DNA of 51,736 nt from the NCBI GenBank assembly GCA_027064005.1, contig JAMOQM010000051.1, positions 1 to 51,736 of the forward strand, in the 5' to 3' direction. Under the pieces are notes generated by a model, which saw only the letters and a list, made by a program, of their open reading frames with translations, had not been told where the DNA came from and did no database searches. Numbering within the stretch: position 1 is the first letter of the stretch; the number at the start of each line of letters is the position of its first letter. Of this stretch, positions 17,390 through 24,572 are shown one piece after another. The stretch comes from Candidatus Cloacimonadota bacterium. Lineage in GTDB: Bacteria > Cloacimonadota > Cloacimonadia > Cloacimonadales > JAMOQM01. The translations under genes and the position numbers were made by a program.

Positions 17390-18169
17390 ATGAATTACAA
17401 TGATACTGATTTTATTAAAGATGTTTCCGAATTAACAAAAATTAAATTTGTCGGAACTGATAAAGATGCTCCGAAAAAACGTAAAAATAAAAGGAATCAA
17501 CATCCCAAAAAAGAAAAGAAAGAATCATTTGCTTCTGAATTAGAAGAAGACTTAAATAAAGAAACCGGCGAAAAAAATAATCTAAATATCGGAATTAAAG
17601 TTCTTGAAAAAAGAAATTCGGAACTATCGGCATTATCGGATATGATTAGGAATGAAAATTATGACGAAAATTTGATTCAAAGGAAAATCTTAAAAAGTGA
17701 TAGAGATTTATACGAAATAAGTTCCGATTCACCGTTATTACCTAATGAAAAAGATTTAGAAAAAGATGACTTGGAAAAATTACAGCAATTAGATAGATAT
17801 TACGCACGTTATGAAAAGCTTACAAATGAACAAAAAGAAACAATTATTAAAGAAGATTTTGACCTATTAAATAAACTATTCTCCGAAAAAAACACAATTT
17901 TAGCAAAAATACAAACCCTACAAAATACAATCAATTACGAAAAAATTGCCCACTCTGAAGAAAAAAAAATTAAAGCAAACATCATCCTTTCCGATATTCA
18001 TAATAGGATGAACGGAGTTATTCAAATCGAAGACGAAAATAACTCCAGATTATGTTCTTTAAAAAATGAAATGAAAGTTGCTCTGGGAAAAATCCATAAA
18101 GGTTCCCAAATGATTGCTAAGTACGGCAATAAACATATTTCATCTCATTTTATAGATAAAAAAACATAG
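17390..18169 (+). CDS. Hypothetical protein; C-terminal half resembles FlgN/FliT-type flagellar chaperones
   Basis: Helical LTxEQKE.I..EDFD.L..L..EK pattern; directly upstream of the flagellins. Confidence 0.45.
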   Translation: MNYNDTDFIKDVSELTKIKFVGTDKDAPKKRKNKRNQHPKKEKKESFASELEEDLNKETGEKNNLNIGIKVLEKRNSELSALSDMIRNENYDENLIQRKILKSDRDLYEISSDSPLLPNEKDLEKDDLEKLQQLDRYYARYEKLTNEQKETIIKEDFDLLNKLFSEKNTILAKIQTLQNTINYEKIAHSEEKKIKANIILSDIHNRMNGVIQIEDENNSRLCSLKNEMKVALGKIHKGSQMIAKYGNKHISSHFIDKKT

Positions 18170-19188: not shown

Positions 19189-19283
19189 GAATTATTTAGA
19201 CCTTTATACAAGAACATACACGTGCATAGCCAAAAATTAGGTTAGAAGGCTCTCGTATTATTCATAATTAATACAAAAAATAA

Positions 19284-19323: not shown

Positions 19324-20313
19324 ATGTCTTTAGTAATTAACCATAACCTTATGTCTATGAACACTGCGAGAAATTTAAACAATTCGTATAATAGTTTGGC
19401 AAAATCCGTACAAAGATTATCTACAGGTATGAGAATCAATTCTGCTGCCGATGATGCCGCCGGATTGGCTATTAGAGAAGGAATGAGATCTGATATTTCA
19501 GCACTGAATCAAGGTGTAAGAAATGCTCAAGATGGTATTTCGATGATTCAAACTGCAGAAGGAGCTCTCGGGGTAGTTGATGAAAAACTAATTCGTATGA
19601 AAGAGTTGGCAGAACAAGCTGCAACCGGTACTTATACAAACGCTCAAAGATTAATCATTCATTCGGAATTTTCTGCAATGGCTGCAGAAATAGACAGAAT
19701 CGCAACTTCCACAGATTTCAACGGTGTAAAATTATTGGACGGTAACGTTTCCGTAGCCGGAAATGGTGGTCAATGGACAGCCAATAATACATGGAGTGCA
19801 ACAGAAGGATTGTGGACAAATAGTAGCGGATGGAAAGAAGTTACCGGCAATGCAACCAATGGCAATATTACAGGTGGAGTGAAAATTCACTTTGGTGCCG
19901 GAAATAATCGTGCCGAAGATTATTACTTTGTTCGTTTAGGAGATATGAGAACGACTTCATTATTCGCAAGTAGCGGAACAACTGTCAGCTCAGCAACTAG
20001 TGCAGCCAATACAATTGCGGTATCAACACAACATGCAGCTCAAATAGCTCTTGAACAATTGAATACAGCAATGACAAGAAAAGAAAACATGCGAGCATCA
20101 CTTGGTGCTGTTCAAAATCGTCTTGAAAACACTATTTCGAACATTTCAATTCAGTCTGAGAATTTACAAGCTTCCGAGTCTCGTATTTCTGATGTTGATG
20201 TAGCAACAGAAATGACGAATTTCACAAGAAATCAAGTATTGACTCAATCAGCTGTAGCAATGCTTTCCCAAGCAAACTCATTACCTCAAATGGCATTGAG
20301 ATTACTCGGATAA
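19324..20313 (+). CDS. fliC: Flagellin (paralog 2)
   Basis: LSTGMRINSAADDAAGLAI, LGAVQNRLE, SRISDVDVATEM, LSQANSLPQ. Confidence 0.95.
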   Translation: MSLVINHNLMSMNTARNLNNSYNSLAKSVQRLSTGMRINSAADDAAGLAIREGMRSDISALNQGVRNAQDGISMIQTAEGALGVVDEKLIRMKELAEQAATGTYTNAQRLIIHSEFSAMAAEIDRIATSTDFNGVKLLDGNVSVAGNGGQWTANNTWSATEGLWTNSSGWKEVTGNATNGNITGGVKIHFGAGNNRAEDYYFVRLGDMRTTSLFASSGTTVSSATSAANTIAVSTQHAAQIALEQLNTAMTRKENMRASLGAVQNRLENTISNISIQSENLQASESRISDVDVATEMTNFTRNQVLTQSAVAMLSQANSLPQMALRLLG

Positions 20314-20339
20314 ATTAGAAAAACAGCATTTAATTATAC

Positions 20340-20364
20340 AGGGGAATAAAAAATTCCCCTTTTT
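20340..20364 (+). terminator. Intrinsic terminator after flagellin 2
   Basis: AGGGGAAT-aaaaa-ATTCCCCT-TTTT. Confidence 0.8.
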
Positions 20365-20413
20365 AATATAAACAATTTAACAATTATGAAAACGAATACT
20401 ACGAAAGTCAGTA

Positions 20414-20422
20414 TGTTATAAT
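20414..20422 (+). promoter_or_regulatory. Putative extended -10 sigma70 promoter of flagellin 3
   Basis: TG-T-TATAAT, downstream of the fla2 terminator and just 5' of the structured leader. Confidence 0.45.
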
Positions 20423-20438
20423 TTTATGACGTGTAGGT

Positions 20439-20560
20439 TAGTTCCTCATTTTTTTGGTTCGGTAAAATAGTCTGGTAAAACAATAGAAATGCTGAGATGA
20501 TAAATTAAGGATTAGTCCTTAACTTGGCAAGGATGCCACTAACCGATCAAGGAGGAATTA
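20439..20560 (+). promoter_or_regulatory. Structured 5' leader of flagellin 3 (anti-SD long hairpin with embedded CsrA site)
   Basis: Nested pairings 20439-47/20552-60, 20454-63/20542-50, 20468-77/20534-41, 20490-96/20523-29, 20505-11/20516-22. Alternative CsrA hairpin TGGCA-AGGA-TGCCA at 20525-38. Confidence 0.7.
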
Positions 20561-21549
20561 TGTCACTCGTAATAAACCACAATATGATGGCCATGAATTC
20601 AGCAAGAAACTTAAACAAGTCTTATAACAGTTTGTCTAGGTCAGTTCAACGCTTATCAACAGGAATGAGAATCAATTCGGCAGCAGATGATGCAGCAGGA
20701 TTGGCAATTCGTGAAGGTATGCGTTCGGATATCGCGTCATTGAATCAAGGTGTAAGAAATGCTCAAGACGGTATTTCATTGATTCAGACGGCAGAAGGTG
20801 CACTCGGTGTTGTTGATGAAAAACTCATTCGTATGAAAGAGTTGGCTGAACAAGCAGCAACCGGTACCTATACTAATGCTCAGAGATTAATTATCCATTC
20901 TGAATTTTCTGCAATGGCTGCAGAAATTGACAGAATCGCAACTTCAACGGATTTTAACGGTGTTAAGTTGTTAAACGGTAATGTTTCCGTAGCAGGTAGT
21001 GGAGGTAGTTGGACAACCAACAATACATGGAGTGCAACTGAAGGAATGTGGACAAATAGCAGCGGATGGAAAGAAGCTAACGGTACTGCAGCCAATGGAA
21101 ACATAAAAGGTGGAGTAAAAATTCACTTTGGAGCAGGAAATAACCGTGCAGAAGATTACTATTTCGTAAGAATTGGCGATATGAGAACAACATCATTATT
21201 TGCAGCAACCGGAACAGCTGTTAGTTCGGCAACTTCAGCGGCAAATACAATTGCAGTTTCAACTCAACATGCAGCTCAAATGGCTCTTGAACAATTGAAT
21301 ACGGCAATGACAAGAAAAGAGAACATGCGTGCTTCTCTCGGTGCTGTTCAAAATCGTCTTGAAAACACTATTTCAAACATTTCGATTCAGTCTGAAAATT
21401 TACAAGCTTCCGAGTCTCGTATTTCTGATGTTGATGTAGCAACAGAAATGACGAATTTCACAAGGAATCAAGTATTGACTCAGTCTGCTGTAGCAATGCT
21501 TTCACAAGCAAACTCGTTACCACAAATGGCACTTAGACTTATCGGATAG
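20560..21549 (+). CDS. fliC: Flagellin (paralog 3)
   Basis: Near-identical to paralog 2. Start set to ATG 20560 (SD GGAGG, MSLVINHN) rather than TTG 20524. Confidence 0.95.
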   Translation: MSLVINHNMMAMNSARNLNKSYNSLSRSVQRLSTGMRINSAADDAAGLAIREGMRSDIASLNQGVRNAQDGISLIQTAEGALGVVDEKLIRMKELAEQAATGTYTNAQRLIIHSEFSAMAAEIDRIATSTDFNGVKLLNGNVSVAGSGGSWTTNNTWSATEGMWTNSSGWKEANGTAANGNIKGGVKIHFGAGNNRAEDYYFVRIGDMRTTSLFAATGTAVSSATSAANTIAVSTQHAAQMALEQLNTAMTRKENMRASLGAVQNRLENTISNISIQSENLQASESRISDVDVATEMTNFTRNQVLTQSAVAMLSQANSLPQMALRLIG

Positions 21550-21588
21550 TTAGGTTCGGAAGAGATAGCACTATCACAGTAAAATTTC

Positions 21589-21617
21589 TCAAAAGGAGAA
21601 ACTCTTTTGAACATTTT
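21589..21617 (+). terminator. Possible weak terminator after flagellin 3
   Basis: TCAAAAG(G)AG-aaa-CTCTTTTGA followed by ACATTTT. Confidence 0.45.
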
Positions 21618-21640
21618 GGAAACACTCTGTAAAAAGTCTA

Positions 21641-21669
21641 TTGACAAAAAACTATTCGGCGAGTAAATT
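21641..21669 (+). promoter_or_regulatory. Sigma70 promoter with no downstream ORF
   Basis: TTGACA-17 nt-TAAATT. Confidence 0.65.
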
Positions 21670-21674
21670 AAGAT

Positions 21675-21797
21675 AAAGAAAACGAAGTAAATGTGATCTT
21701 GGCAAATCTACTGTGGCAATGTCATAGGGAACTATGATGTTGAGAGTGCTAGGCTAACCGAACCAGATGGGTAGGTACAAATCTGCCCATCATTTTT
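21675..21797 (+). ncRNA. Putative ~120-nt small RNA complementary to the flagellin-3 leader and 3' UTR
   Basis: Promoter, internal 11-bp hairpin with GGAA loop (21717-42), terminator, no ORF, and GC-richer than its flanks. Confidence 0.6.
21766..21797 (+). terminator. Intrinsic terminator of the putative sRNA
   Basis: GATGGGTAGGT-acaa-ATCTGCCCATC-ATTTTT; U-tract on the + strand only. Confidence 0.75.
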
Positions 21798-21826
21798 AAA
21801 TATGCACAAAAAATGTTCTAATGTTT

Positions 21827-22723
21827 TTATATTAGTTTTTTCTTAAATAAATGTATTTTATCGTAAACGACAAAACCATTTCGAGAAAAAGCTTTAATCA
21901 TAGGATTGTTGCAAAAATCTGTTTCAGCAATAATCCTTTTTTTATTTTTTAACTTTTCAATTGAATGTAGTATTAGTTCGTCGATAAATCTATTTCCTCT
22001 CATTTTAGGAATAATCCCGATATAACTTATTGAACCGGTGTCTTTATTTTCTATTTGAGAAATTATTAAGCCCACCAATTTATTTTTCCAAAAAGCCAAT
22101 TCCCATAAATTTGGAATAAAATTTTGAGATTTCAACTCTTTAAAATACTCTATTGAAGATTTTTTTGAGCCATATTTTTTATGATATTCAATATCTTCAT
22201 TATCCAAGGAATTTGAACTAATTTTTCGGAGGGTCCGGATAAAAGTTTCTTCTCCAACAAGATTAATGGATTTAAAATCAAAATTTTCAAAATCACTTTT
22301 TTGTCTTGTTTCTAAAATTAATTTCAATTTAGTTTGAGTTTTTTTGAAATTAGAAGCTTCTAAAATTTCCATAATATTTTCAAAGAAAGGAGTATTACTT
22401 TCAGAAAAATAAAATTCTATTTCACTAAATTTATTTTTGCTTAAAATATTATTAATAGCTTTCATTAAAAAAAACAACCCGTAAAGCTTTAAAAATTTCT
22501 TATCGATTGAAGCAAAATTATAAATTAAAGCGATTTTATCGTTTTCCGGTTCAACACAAAAAATCAATCCTAGAATCGGTTTATTTTCTAAATAAAATGT
22601 TAAGATTAAATCATTTTGGGTATAAGATTTATCAATCAAATAATTTATTTCACTTTTAGATATCACTTTCGCTAAAAAAAGATAATCTTTAATTTGACCT
22701 GTTTTAATCAGAGAATTTTCCAA
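21827..22723 (-). CDS. GNAT family acetyltransferase
   Basis: C-terminal ISYIGIIPKMRGN and N.PM..AF...GF motifs. Confidence 0.7.
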   Translation of the reverse strand: MENSLIKTGQIKDYLFLAKVISKSEINYLIDKSYTQNDLILTFYLENKPILGLIFCVEPENDKIALIYNFASIDKKFLKLYGLFFLMKAINNILSKNKFSEIEFYFSESNTPFFENIMEILEASNFKKTQTKLKLILETRQKSDFENFDFKSINLVGEETFIRTLRKISSNSLDNEDIEYHKKYGSKKSSIEYFKELKSQNFIPNLWELAFWKNKLVGLIISQIENKDTGSISYIGIIPKMRGNRFIDELILHSIEKLKNKKRIIAETDFCNNPMIKAFSRNGFVVYDKIHLFKKKLI

Positions 22724-22950: not shown

Positions 22951-23568
22951 TTGGAGTTAATTATGGTTCAGGAAATCTTTAAAGCTTTCAGCAACGCAGT
23001 AAAATTAATCACTGAATTTACCTCTGACAAAAACAATATTCAAAAGACATTAGATATATCATTTGAAATTGCCGAAGCATTTAAGCGTGGCAATAAAGTT
23101 TTAGTTTGTGGAAATGGTGGAAGCATGGCAGATGCTGATCATTTCGCTGAAGAATTTACCGGTCGTTTTAGATCAAATAGAGAAGCATTACCGGTTATTT
23201 CTTTATCAAATTCCTCCCATTTAAGTTGCGTCTCAAATGACTTTGGTTTCAAATATGTTTTCGCACGAGAAATTGAAGCTTTCGGAAAACCGGGCGACAT
23301 TTTAATCGGATTATCAACAAGCGGGAATTCTGAAAATATTGTTTTAGCACTTAGAAAAGCACAAAAAATGGGATTAAAAACGATAGGATTATTAGGGAAA
23401 AACGGTGGAGAAGCGAGACATTTTTCTGATATGGGATTTATTATCCAAGGAGAAACATCCGATAGAATCCAAGAGGTTCACATGACAATTCTTCATATAA
23501 TAATTGAAGGTGTTGAGAGAATTTTGTTCCCTGAACTTTATCCTGTAAAAAATCAAGAGGTTGAGTAA
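22951..23568 (+). CDS. gmhA: D-sedoheptulose 7-phosphate isomerase
   Basis: CGNGGS.ADA.H...E, SNDFG, STSGNS, RIQEVH; likely start ATG 22963. Confidence 0.92.
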   Translation: MELIMVQEIFKAFSNAVKLITEFTSDKNNIQKTLDISFEIAEAFKRGNKVLVCGNGGSMADADHFAEEFTGRFRSNREALPVISLSNSSHLSCVSNDFGFKYVFAREIEAFGKPGDILIGLSTSGNSENIVLALRKAQKMGLKTIGLLGKNGGEARHFSDMGFIIQGETSDRIQEVHMTILHIIIEGVERILFPELYPVKNQEVE

Positions 23569-24572
23569 TGCAAAAAATAGCGGCAATTGATATAGGTTCC
23601 TATCAAATAAAAATACTTTTTGGTGAAAAAACGAAAGAAGGTGAATTTGTCGGACACGCATATTCTTTTGCATATCCGGCTTTTAGTGATTTAGACCCTC
23701 TTAAAGAAAAAATAATTTACGATTCTTTTTATGAGAAGAATCAGCATTTCATTATCGAAATATTAAAAATGATTAAAGATAAATATCTGAAAAATAGCAA
23801 AAATATTGCCTCCTTTAATTCCAAATTTGGAAAAATCTTTGTTGAAGTTATTGAGACTGAAAGTAAAAAGAAACTAAAATTAAAAGGCGATATTTATTCC
23901 GAAAAATTAATGAGTGAAAACTGTTATGCCGCTTCAAAAATAATCGGTTATAACAAAGTTACTAAAAAAGGTGAGATGTTAATTTATTCTTATCAAATAG
24001 ATCAATTTAGACAATTTCAATCAATTTTAGAAGACAGTGAAATAAAGATTGATGAGATAGATTTCGATTCCTTAAGTCTGGTTAATTTTTTAGAAAACTA
24101 TTTTACTATAAATGATAATGCTTTGGTTATTGATTGCAGTGCAAGTAAAACTACCTTTATTTATTATAGCCAAAAAAGATTAAAATACATCGATGTTCAA
24201 GATTTTAAAAGTGATGATATTTTTTATCGAATGAGTCTTAGAACAGGAGAAAAATTCCACAAGTTAAAACAATTTTTATTTAGTGATAACAATCCTTATG
24301 ATAAGATAGTTGAATTGGATACTCAAGATCTTTTATCTCCATATATCAGAAGAATTCAAGCCTATCTTAGAAAGTTAAACATAAAACAAGAATTTAAGAT
24401 ATATTTAACCGGCGGATCAATTTTAATCCCGGATTTTGTAACTCATTTACAATCTGTCCTTGAAAAAGATGTTGATATCTTATATCCCGGCAGAGTTTTA
24501 CCTTATGTTACATTTCACCAACCTGAGCAATTATTTGCCAATGTATCAGGATTATTAATGAGGAAATTATGA
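23568..24572 (+). CDS. PilM/FtsA-like actin-fold protein
   Basis: AIDIGSYQIK, LVIDCSASKT, IYLTGGS. Confidence 0.6.
   Translation: MQKIAAIDIGSYQIKILFGEKTKEGEFVGHAYSFAYPAFSDLDPLKEKIIYDSFYEKNQHFIIEILKMIKDKYLKNSKNIASFNSKFGKIFVEVIETESKKKLKLKGDIYSEKLMSENCYAASKIIGYNKVTKKGEMLIYSYQIDQFRQFQSILEDSEIKIDEIDFDSLSLVNFLENYFTINDNALVIDCSASKTTFIYYSQKRLKYIDVQDFKSDDIFYRMSLRTGEKFHKLKQFLFSDNNPYDKIVELDTQDLLSPYIRRIQAYLRKLNIKQEFKIYLTGGSILIPDFVTHLQSVLEKDVDILYPGRVLPYVTFHQPEQLFANVSGLLMRKL

Follow-up and report, generated by a model that had tools for sequence, protein, structure and literature searches.

What function could be served by a sequence just 3' of a flagellin gene that is complementary, in three separate pieces, to an RNA-like element further downstream? 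The question is raised by flagellin-3, the final member of a tandem flagellin array in a 51,736-nucleotide (nt) stretch of Candidatus Cloacimonadota DNA (contig JAMOQM010000051.1; hereafter the window, to which all positions refer). A reading made from the letters alone (the sequence-only reading) had described three 7-mers in antiparallel order in the flagellin-3 3' untranslated region (UTR), complementary to a putative small RNA (sRNA), and had proposed either that the mRNA sponges this sRNA, its putative activator, in trans (negative feedback) or that read-through transcripts fold in cis into a structure that would inactivate the sRNA or be a substrate of RNase III. The complementarity of site and downstream element is real and far above chance; of the two proposals, folding in cis within a read-through transcript is the better fit, and the sponge is less favoured on the terminator scan reported below.

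Three ordered 7-mers 3' of flagellin-3 are complementary to a downstream element

Reading the sequence and locating each word verified the coordinates of the 7-mers and their exact complementarity: GGTTCGG (21553-59) is the exact reverse complement of CCGAACC (21758-64), TAGCACT (21566-72) that of AGTGCTA (21745-51), and CACAGTA (21575-81) that of TACTGTG (21709-15). As the flagellin-3 open reading frame (ORF) ends at 21549, the site begins 4 nt 3' of the stop codon. CCGAACC, AGTGCTA, CACAGTA and TACTGTG are present in a single copy each in the 51.7-kb window and TAGCACT in three copies, while GGTTCGG is found twice, the second copy lying at 20456 in the flagellin-3 leader. The downstream element (21696-21797) is referred to as the core or module, its pairing segments as S3, S2 and S1 (in 5' to 3' order), the matching segments of the site as S1', S2' and S3', and the helices between them as H1 to H3 (Table 1).

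When the 51 nt after the stop codon were dinucleotide-shuffled 20000 times, three ordered 7-mer complements to the core were obtained in no case, two in 26, one in 2082 and none in 17892. With hairpin 1 of the core excluded, the stop-to-core interval formed an RNAduplex of -35.7 kcal/mol with the core, compared with a shuffle mean of -16.9 (standard deviation 2.8, z = -6.66), and 0 of 1000 shuffles were as strong as the site. Folding of 21550-21800 (minimum free energy (MFE) -72.7, z = -5.67, 0 of 200 shuffles) returned precisely H1, H2 and H3, arranged about the internal hairpin, which loops out of a predicted three-way junction, as the sequence-only reading had envisaged. Pair probabilities for H1-H3 were 0.87-1.0, both in this segment and in the wider segment 21300-21830, and the U at 21580 in H3 pairs with an A at 21710 that is a lineage-specific base of the core.

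It is very improbable that the 7-mers are chance inverted repeats or an element acting at the DNA level, such as a recombination or inversion site. The repeats are just 7 nt long and the region is A/T-rich, but three ordered matches were never reached in the shuffles, the arrangement recurs with compensatory changes in other families, the partner contains RNA hairpins supported by covariation (both described below), and no recombinase is encoded nearby, the neighbour being a convergent gene for a GNAT acetyltransferase.

The core is a conserved RNA module that accompanies flagellin arrays

Covariation in its hairpins and a distribution linked to flagellin identify the downstream element, the "sRNA" of the sequence-only reading, as a genuine conserved RNA module. 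The aligned core consists of two covarying hairpins and the near-invariant single strands AAAUCUGCUGUGG (S3) and GAGUGCUAGGCUAACCGAACC (S2 and S1); within the S2/S1 region, CUAGGCUAACCGAACC showed no variation among 20 aligned sequences. Hairpin cells were paired in 98.6%, nine pairs had changed on both sides, and 0 of 500 shuffles reached the observed values; in hairpin 2, both-sided changes were seen in 8 of the 12 pairs. No Rfam 15 match was obtained at the gathering score in the whole window, and a search at E <= 10 over 20300-21900 gave five chance-level matches, none of them overlapping 21550-21800. The module thus points to an undescribed RNA family, absent from Rfam 15.

Several other identities were considered for the core. 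The genome encodes its 6S RNA on contig C85 and its signal recognition particle RNA on contig C3, and both identities were rejected. The core alignment contains no repeated GGA loops of the kind found in protein sponges of the CsrB/RsmZ type. A small protein was rejected as well: in the flagellin-like frame the window has a TAG directly after ...GCA ATG TCA, indels differ by lineage, and a short form of the locus, here termed f7, has an additional G. With its interrupted frame and lineage-specific indels, the core is not a conserved ORF.

A DNA search of 40 relatives matched window positions 21696-21771 in 14 of them with 74-82% identity, and a gapped-pattern search retrieved 19 genome records, 18 of them titled Cloacimonadota or Cloacimonadales and one titled Fibrobacteria, together with 16 metagenome contigs. 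A covariance model built from the core (R1) was run on a sample of 151 genomes of the phylum, in which Flagellin_N was counted with the same family denominators. R1 matched in 14 genomes and flagellin was present in 15; all 14 RNA-bearing genomes have flagellin, and none of the 136 genomes without flagellin carries the RNA. The sole flagellin genome without an RNA match (G139) is 91% complete and split into 200 contigs. Within the sets searched, the family to which the window belongs is represented by the window alone. In all 37 loci (the window, the 19 genome records, locus L054 of genome G012 and the 16 metagenome contigs) the core is found on the same strand as, and 3' of, the last flagellin gene of the tandem array, at 64-620 nt from its stop codon and, in the f7-type loci, at 64-74 nt.

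In the Fibrobacteria-titled record (L026), the core also follows a flagellin gene and has S2 altered to GAAGAACUAGG; either the label of this record is wrong or the RNA extends outside Cloacimonadota.

The core is complementary to the leaders of distal flagellin genes

To compare the core with flagellin leaders, duplex energies were calculated for 24 leaders from six genomes and set against 300 shuffles. At about -110 to -72 from the ATG, the leaders of distal paralogues contain AUUGGUUUGGUUAGCCUA...ACAG(C/U)AGAUU, which is the reverse complement of S1/S2 and S3. Ten of the 24 leaders gave in silico energies that were reached by 0 of 300 shuffles, and three more gave energies reached by one. 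None of the six first-gene leaders was significant against the shuffles, the site being lacking in the first gene of each array. The flagellin-3 leader also matches the core (Table 1), and the gene is consequently bracketed by two sites complementary to one RNA, as the sequence-only reading had stated.

In the flagellin-3 leader the site spans -106 to -72 from the ATG, and the predicted duplex with the core does not cover the Shine-Dalgarno (SD) sequence AAGGAGG at 20549-55. In 9 of 11 predicted leader folds (in the window, 20452-20556) the extreme 5' GAUUGGUU pairs with AACCAAUC right before the SD sequence, and the sixth leader of genome G016 has a covarying version of this helix, GGUUCG with CGAACU. 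On the basis of these folds, the core would compete with the leader helix adjoining the SD sequence. Moreover, the leaders contain a GGA hairpin together with AAGGAGG, which we take to be the pattern of CsrA-controlled flagellin leaders; genes for CsrA and FliW are located on contig C88 of the window's genome. A search for Hfq (PF17209) gave no match in this genome, which is 100% complete by marker genes, and the module seems to be Hfq-independent.

Downstream of hairpin 2, most relatives have a CAUCAC-rich tail to which the leader of the second flagellin gene (GAUCUUUUACAAG.ACAUA.GUGAUG) is complementary; the matches are specific to the lineage and extend over 9, 10 and 11 nt in genomes G021, G005 and G004, respectively. 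Ranked by the longest exact complements (RNAduplex of 170-nt leaders against 110-nt tails was too noisy), the cognate tail/leader pair was best in three of six genomes. In the window, the corresponding words are UAUGCAC in the tail (21801-07) and its complement GUGCAUA (19222-28) in the leader of flagellin-2. These matches suggest that the tail may be a second pairing region, directed at a second class of flagellin leaders. A sigma-28 promoter 5' of the leader-type sites was considered from CCGATAT-like and TAATAG-like -10 elements seen by eye; the start site could not be fixed and no claim is made.

The 3'-UTR site recurs with compensatory changes in several lineages

For each locus, the duplex of the upstream site with the core was compared with dinucleotide shuffles (p <= 0.05; the core segments of the window and L026 were set by hand). 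Among the genome loci, the site was significant in 8 of 21: the window (z = -6.7), L054 (-5.4), L029 (-4.4), L032 (-4.05), L031 (-2.8), L034 (-2.25), L025 (-2.0) and L033 (-1.9). Seven of the 16 metagenome loci were tested, near-duplicates of genome loci (L063, L065, L068, L070-L074 and L076) having been dropped, and three of these were significant (L075, z = -5.8; L067, -3.7; L061, -2.3), giving 11 of 28 loci overall. The layout S1'-S2'-S3' is repeated among lineages, reading GUUCGG-AA-GGCUUAGCA-AC-CCACAGC in L067 and CGGUCGGUUAG-UUGA-CUUGU-A-CACAGCAG in L054.

Changes in the core are matched by changes in the site. A core in which A replaces G (UCU[A/G]CUGUG, variant UCUACUGUG) was restricted to the window, L032 and L075, where the site has U at the opposing position in every case; the sites facing G-cores have C or U. 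In L054, the core has ACAAG where other cores have GUGCU, and the site has the compensatory CUUGU. Furthermore, the site is a better match to the core than the flagellin leader of the same genome, both in the window (-35.7 versus -30.1 kcal/mol) and in L054 (-36.1 versus -31.4), which argues for selection on the site itself. Conservation of the site is partial: it recurs with compensatory changes in several lineages and is weak or missing in the short f7 form.

Table 1. Coordinates of the flagellin-3 gene, of the two sites complementary to the core and of the segments of the core in the window.
Feature	Position	Strand	Evidence
Flagellin-3 leader site complementary to the core	20456..20485	+	Duplex -30.1 kcal/mol, z -3.79, 0/300 shuffles
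Flagellin-3 coding sequence (CDS), last of a three-gene tandem array	20560..21549	+	Flagellin_N 3.5e-40, Flagellin_C 2.3e-26
GGUUCGG (S1'), 5' strand of long-range helix H1	21553..21559	+	Word location, fold, shuffles
UAGCACU (S2'), 5' strand of helix H2	21566..21572	+	Word location, fold, shuffles
CACAGUA (S3'), 5' strand of helix H3	21575..21581	+	Word location, fold, shuffles
Variable spacer, large junction loop	21582..21703	+	Fold; length and sequence not conserved
Core segment S3 (AAAUCUACUGUGG), 3' strand of H3	21704..21716	+	Alignment; near-invariant phylum-wide
Core hairpin 1, loops out of the junction	21717..21742	+	Covariation
Core segments S2 and S1 (GAGUGCUAGGCUAACCGAACC), 3' strands of H2 and H1	21743..21765	+	Alignment
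Core hairpin 2 (21766-21791), then U run	21766..21797	+	Best-scoring terminator-like hit; covariation
Possible tail if transcription continues	21798..21841	+	Weak evidence in the window itself

Transcript layout and a predicted lid acting in cis

The two proposals of the sequence-only reading differ in whether site and module belong to one transcript. Between the flagellin stop codon and the core, no terminator-like hairpin was found in 15 of 21 loci, and the remaining six have weak hairpins without a clean U run; in relatives, strong U-run terminators are located 64-127 nt 3' of the core, past the CAUCAC-rich tail. In the window, a single terminator-like site is called 3' of flagellin-3, namely hairpin 2 and the U run behind it, none being called within 21550-21765, where the fold places the U stretch inside a hairpin; flagellin-2 has a clean terminator at 20340-60. 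The module thus resembles sRNAs borne on 3' UTRs in lying on the same strand, in the 3' UTR, behind at most weak hairpins, and in the f7-type loci the short stop-to-core distance places the core within the flagellin 3' UTR.

Because no convincing terminator separates site and module, we favour, with moderate confidence, one transcript that folds in cis, in which a leader-like lid closes a three-way junction and masks S1-S3. According to this model, the flagellin-3 transcript, which has no convincing terminator of its own, would run through the site, the spacer and the module (21696-21797); alternatively, a transcript would begin just 5' of the site. In both cases it would end at or after hairpin 2, and site and module would be co-transcribed. 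The three 7-mers would then be the 5' strands of three long-range helices in a single RNA molecule. The invariant S3, S2 and S1 would pair with the leaders of distal flagellin genes about 70-110 nt 5' of the start codon, and the leader-like site, by folding back, would cover all three pairing segments. As an intramolecular anti-seed, the lid would compete for the module with the real leaders, that of flagellin-3 included, and the module would become active only once processing, breakdown of the upstream part or a stronger leader had taken the lid off or pushed it aside. An effect on flagellin expression may be expected from such pairing.

The alternative that the site acts as a sponge in trans requires that the flagellin-3 mRNA ends soon after the site and that the core is a separate sRNA with its own promoter; the free 3'-UTR site would then titrate the sRNA off the flagellin leaders, providing negative feedback proportional to the amount of flagellin-3 mRNA. 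The complementarity is equally suited to pairing in trans, the site has the properties of a target mimic, and in the window, L054, L032 and L075 it is located 3-28 nt 3' of the stop codon, where a 3'-UTR sponge would be expected. The spacer of the window also contains a weak A/U-rich hairpin (about 21589-21610), followed by UUUU, and a 10-of-12 sigma-70-like match, TTGACA-17-TAAATT (21641-69). This match, however, is one of 24 promoter-like hits against 24.9 expected in shuffles, no conserved promoter motif was found 5' of the core in the aligned loci, the U stretch lies within a predicted hairpin, the f7-type loci leave 64-74 nt between stop codon and core, and with read-through an intramolecular partner would take the site first. 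We regard the sponge as less likely than the cis fold.

Several observations weigh against the cis lid. The weak hairpin with its short U stretch (about 21589-21612) and the promoter-like match lie between site and core, so that separate transcripts are possible, and in L054 the site is separated from the core by about 560 nt that include decayed flagellin sequence, a distance that would also suit a sponge. Two metatranscriptome runs with small shares (0.12 and 0.05) cover only parts of the flagellin CDS, with no reads over 21522-21900, and are uninformative on the transcript ends. The site was non-significant in 13 of the 21 genome loci, including all seven f7-type loci tested (L022, L024, L028, L036, L037, L038 and L039) as well as L021, L027, L030, L026 and L035, with L023 and L028 borderline (p about 0.07) and L035 matching S2 and S3 perfectly over 7+7 bp despite its non-significance. 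It was likewise non-significant in four of the seven metagenome loci (L062, L064, L066 and L069). Being absent or weak in many loci, the lid is not essential to the module. The compensatory events are few, because the core must stay constant for several leaders, and L032 and L075 may be related lineages. Finally, the MFE structure of the whole mRNA (20400-21830) pairs bases of 20456-20485 with 21709-15, 21747-51 and 21758-64, which circularises the mRNA, and this pairing of the core with the 5' leader is preferred over the 3' site (-387.8 versus -375.0 with the three helices enforced). The competing pairings are close in energy in these predictions, which fits a switch without being evidence for one.

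The module and the site probably derive from a flagellin gene copy

Written as codons, the core reads TCT GCT GTG GCA ATG ... ATG GCA TTG AGA GTG CTA GGC TAA, which would translate as S-A-V-A-M ... M-A-L-R-V-L-G-stop, the flagellin C-terminus, and numerous hairpin-1 loops retain CAGGCAAAT, which corresponds to the flagellin residues Q-A-N. Aligned with the last 72 nt of the adjacent flagellin gene, the core beat shuffles (<= 1/500) in 6 of 12 loci; the window's own alignment is weak, its score being reached by 41 of 500 shuffles. R1 has a weak second match (26 bits) at the flagellin-2 3' end (window 20236-20336). The core is far more constant than the adjoining true flagellin 3' ends and, as its frame is broken, this constancy indicates selection as RNA and not as protein.

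Further traces of a flagellin gene are found 5' of the core. In many loci a motif (G)UCUCUCGUAAU(A/C)AAC, located 75-130 nt 5' of the core and mostly lacking an AUG, reproduces the start of flagellin genes, AUGUCACUCGUAAUAAAC. L075 carries, 3' of the site, ACCAAUCAUAGGAUG, which is a decayed form of the leaders' ACCAAUCAAGGAGG...AUG, and then the start-like UCUCUCGUAAAAU. With a C-terminus-like core, start-like motifs and a leader-like site, the region after the array resembles an internally deleted flagellin gene, and from these sequence resemblances it is likely that the module derives from the 3' coding end of such a copy and the 7-mer site from its leader. A literature search on pseudogene-derived sRNAs returned no useful precedent.

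The same remnants could mean that the site is nothing but the not-yet-decayed leader of a dead flagellin copy, or that the helices form a compact 3' end that slows exonucleases. The likeness of L075 and of the start-like motifs to a deleted gene, the alignment of half the cores tested with flagellin 3' ends and the absence of the site from many lineages would all be accommodated. Such a reading appears to us less likely than the cis lid: although all further leader features have been lost in the window, the site still matches the core perfectly over 7+7+7 nt and more strongly than the real leader; the same is true of L054, which has a lineage-specific compensatory S2' in addition; and neutral decay would be expected to erode a 29-nt site.

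Combining this origin with the cis lid leads to a more far-reaching proposal, which we put forward tentatively, namely that a flagellin gene with an internal deletion was converted into a riboregulator, with its 3' end serving as a multi-segment leader-pairing module and its decayed leader as the lid. The module would bind the leaders of the paralogous mRNAs in competition with the leader helix that ends beside the ribosome-binding site, and the last flagellin mRNA would alternate between three pairings that exclude one another: lid with module, its own leader with module (a circularised mRNA), and the leaders of other genes with module in trans. This would constitute a self-titrating circuit that, in parallel with CsrA and FliW, balances the flagellin paralogues. 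As the lid of the window begins 4 nt past the stop codon, ribosomes terminating there could open it, and the freeing of the module would then be linked to flagellin-3 translation.

The 620-nt stop-to-core interval of L054 contains an additional decayed flagellin 3' end (CAATTGGCATGAAGACTTATCGGATAG), and there seem to be two remnants in series in this locus, the strong site being in the first one.

Relation to known RNA regulators

Flagellin is among the costliest proteins of a motile cell and, to our knowledge, the post-transcriptional balancing of tandem flagellin paralogues is little understood. The RNA described here accompanies nearly every flagellin array in the phylum sample and apparently stems from a dead flagellin gene. 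Should the proposed mechanism be true, the RNA would be a clear example from nature of two things, an sRNA that carries a target mimic within its own molecule and a regulatory RNA that arose from a pseudogene, and would provide a testable model of 5'-3' communication within a bacterial mRNA.

In Escherichia coli, the sRNA FliX is cut from the fliC 3' UTR, binds Hfq, pairs within coding sequences and is found in numerous chimeras with the fliC 5' part, according to the available passages of the source (eLife 2023, PMC10578931). Like our module, it lies at the 3' end of a flagellin message, and it is reported there to interact with flagellin mRNA itself; no built-in complementary lid of the kind proposed here is described for FliX in those passages (PMC10578931). 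The two RNAs have no relation by sequence or Rfam and, unlike FliX, the module is found in a genome without a detected Hfq gene and has complementarities of 20-35 bp that lie in leaders. By analogy of function, FliX is the nearest system, with the pairing in icaR also close.

The 3' UTR of icaR reportedly covers the SD sequence and triggers RNase III cleavage. As described in the part of the source available to us, the icaR mRNA of Staphylococcus aureus undergoes 3'-UTR/5'-UTR pairing (PLoS Genet 2013, PMC3868564), and the flagellin-3 3' UTR is similar to the extent that its core is, in silico, complementary to the leader of the same mRNA. It differs in that the leader site is located 72-106 nt 5' of the start codon and leaves the SD sequence uncovered, that its pairing competes with a leader helix ending next to this sequence, and that the 3' UTR contains an additional complementary site at closer range.

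SroC and 3'ETS-leuZ are sponges or decoys that carry a mimic of an sRNA target site and act in trans. The 3'-UTR site shares with them a target-like sequence able to occupy an sRNA pairing region; here, in contrast, the mimic is most likely on the same molecule as this region. The Campylobacter jejuni sRNAs CJnc230 and CJnc170 are tied to the flagellar gene hierarchy, as far as the accessible part of the source states (Nat Commun 2024, PMC11187230), and differ from the module in locus and sequence, a relation judged from the negative Rfam scan alone. A full-text literature search on Cloacimonadota flagellin revealed no such RNA, judged by titles and the start of abstracts. The locus is a combination of known kinds of regulator (3'-UTR-borne sRNA, pairing of 5' and 3' UTRs, and target mimic) on an undescribed RNA family.

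Additional features of the flagellin loci

Elsewhere in the window, two ORFs without a Pfam match were noted, one of 259 amino acids just 5' of flagellin-1 (17390-18169) and one of 334 amino acids (23568-24572). In five f7-type loci without the upstream site (L039, L022, L064, L069 and L062), an SD-like GAGGUG or AAGGAGG and an AUG are located 40-70 nt before the core and open a frame of about 30 codons, which runs through S3 and hairpin 1 and mostly stops at the UAG in GGUGCUAGG; its frame in the middle part varies among members, and it may be a small ORF whose translation unfolds the core, or a chance frame. In the flagellin-2 leader region of the window (19240-19262), GGTTAG is followed by GGCTCTCGTATTATTC, which is like the flagellin start motif and may represent another flagellin fragment within the array.

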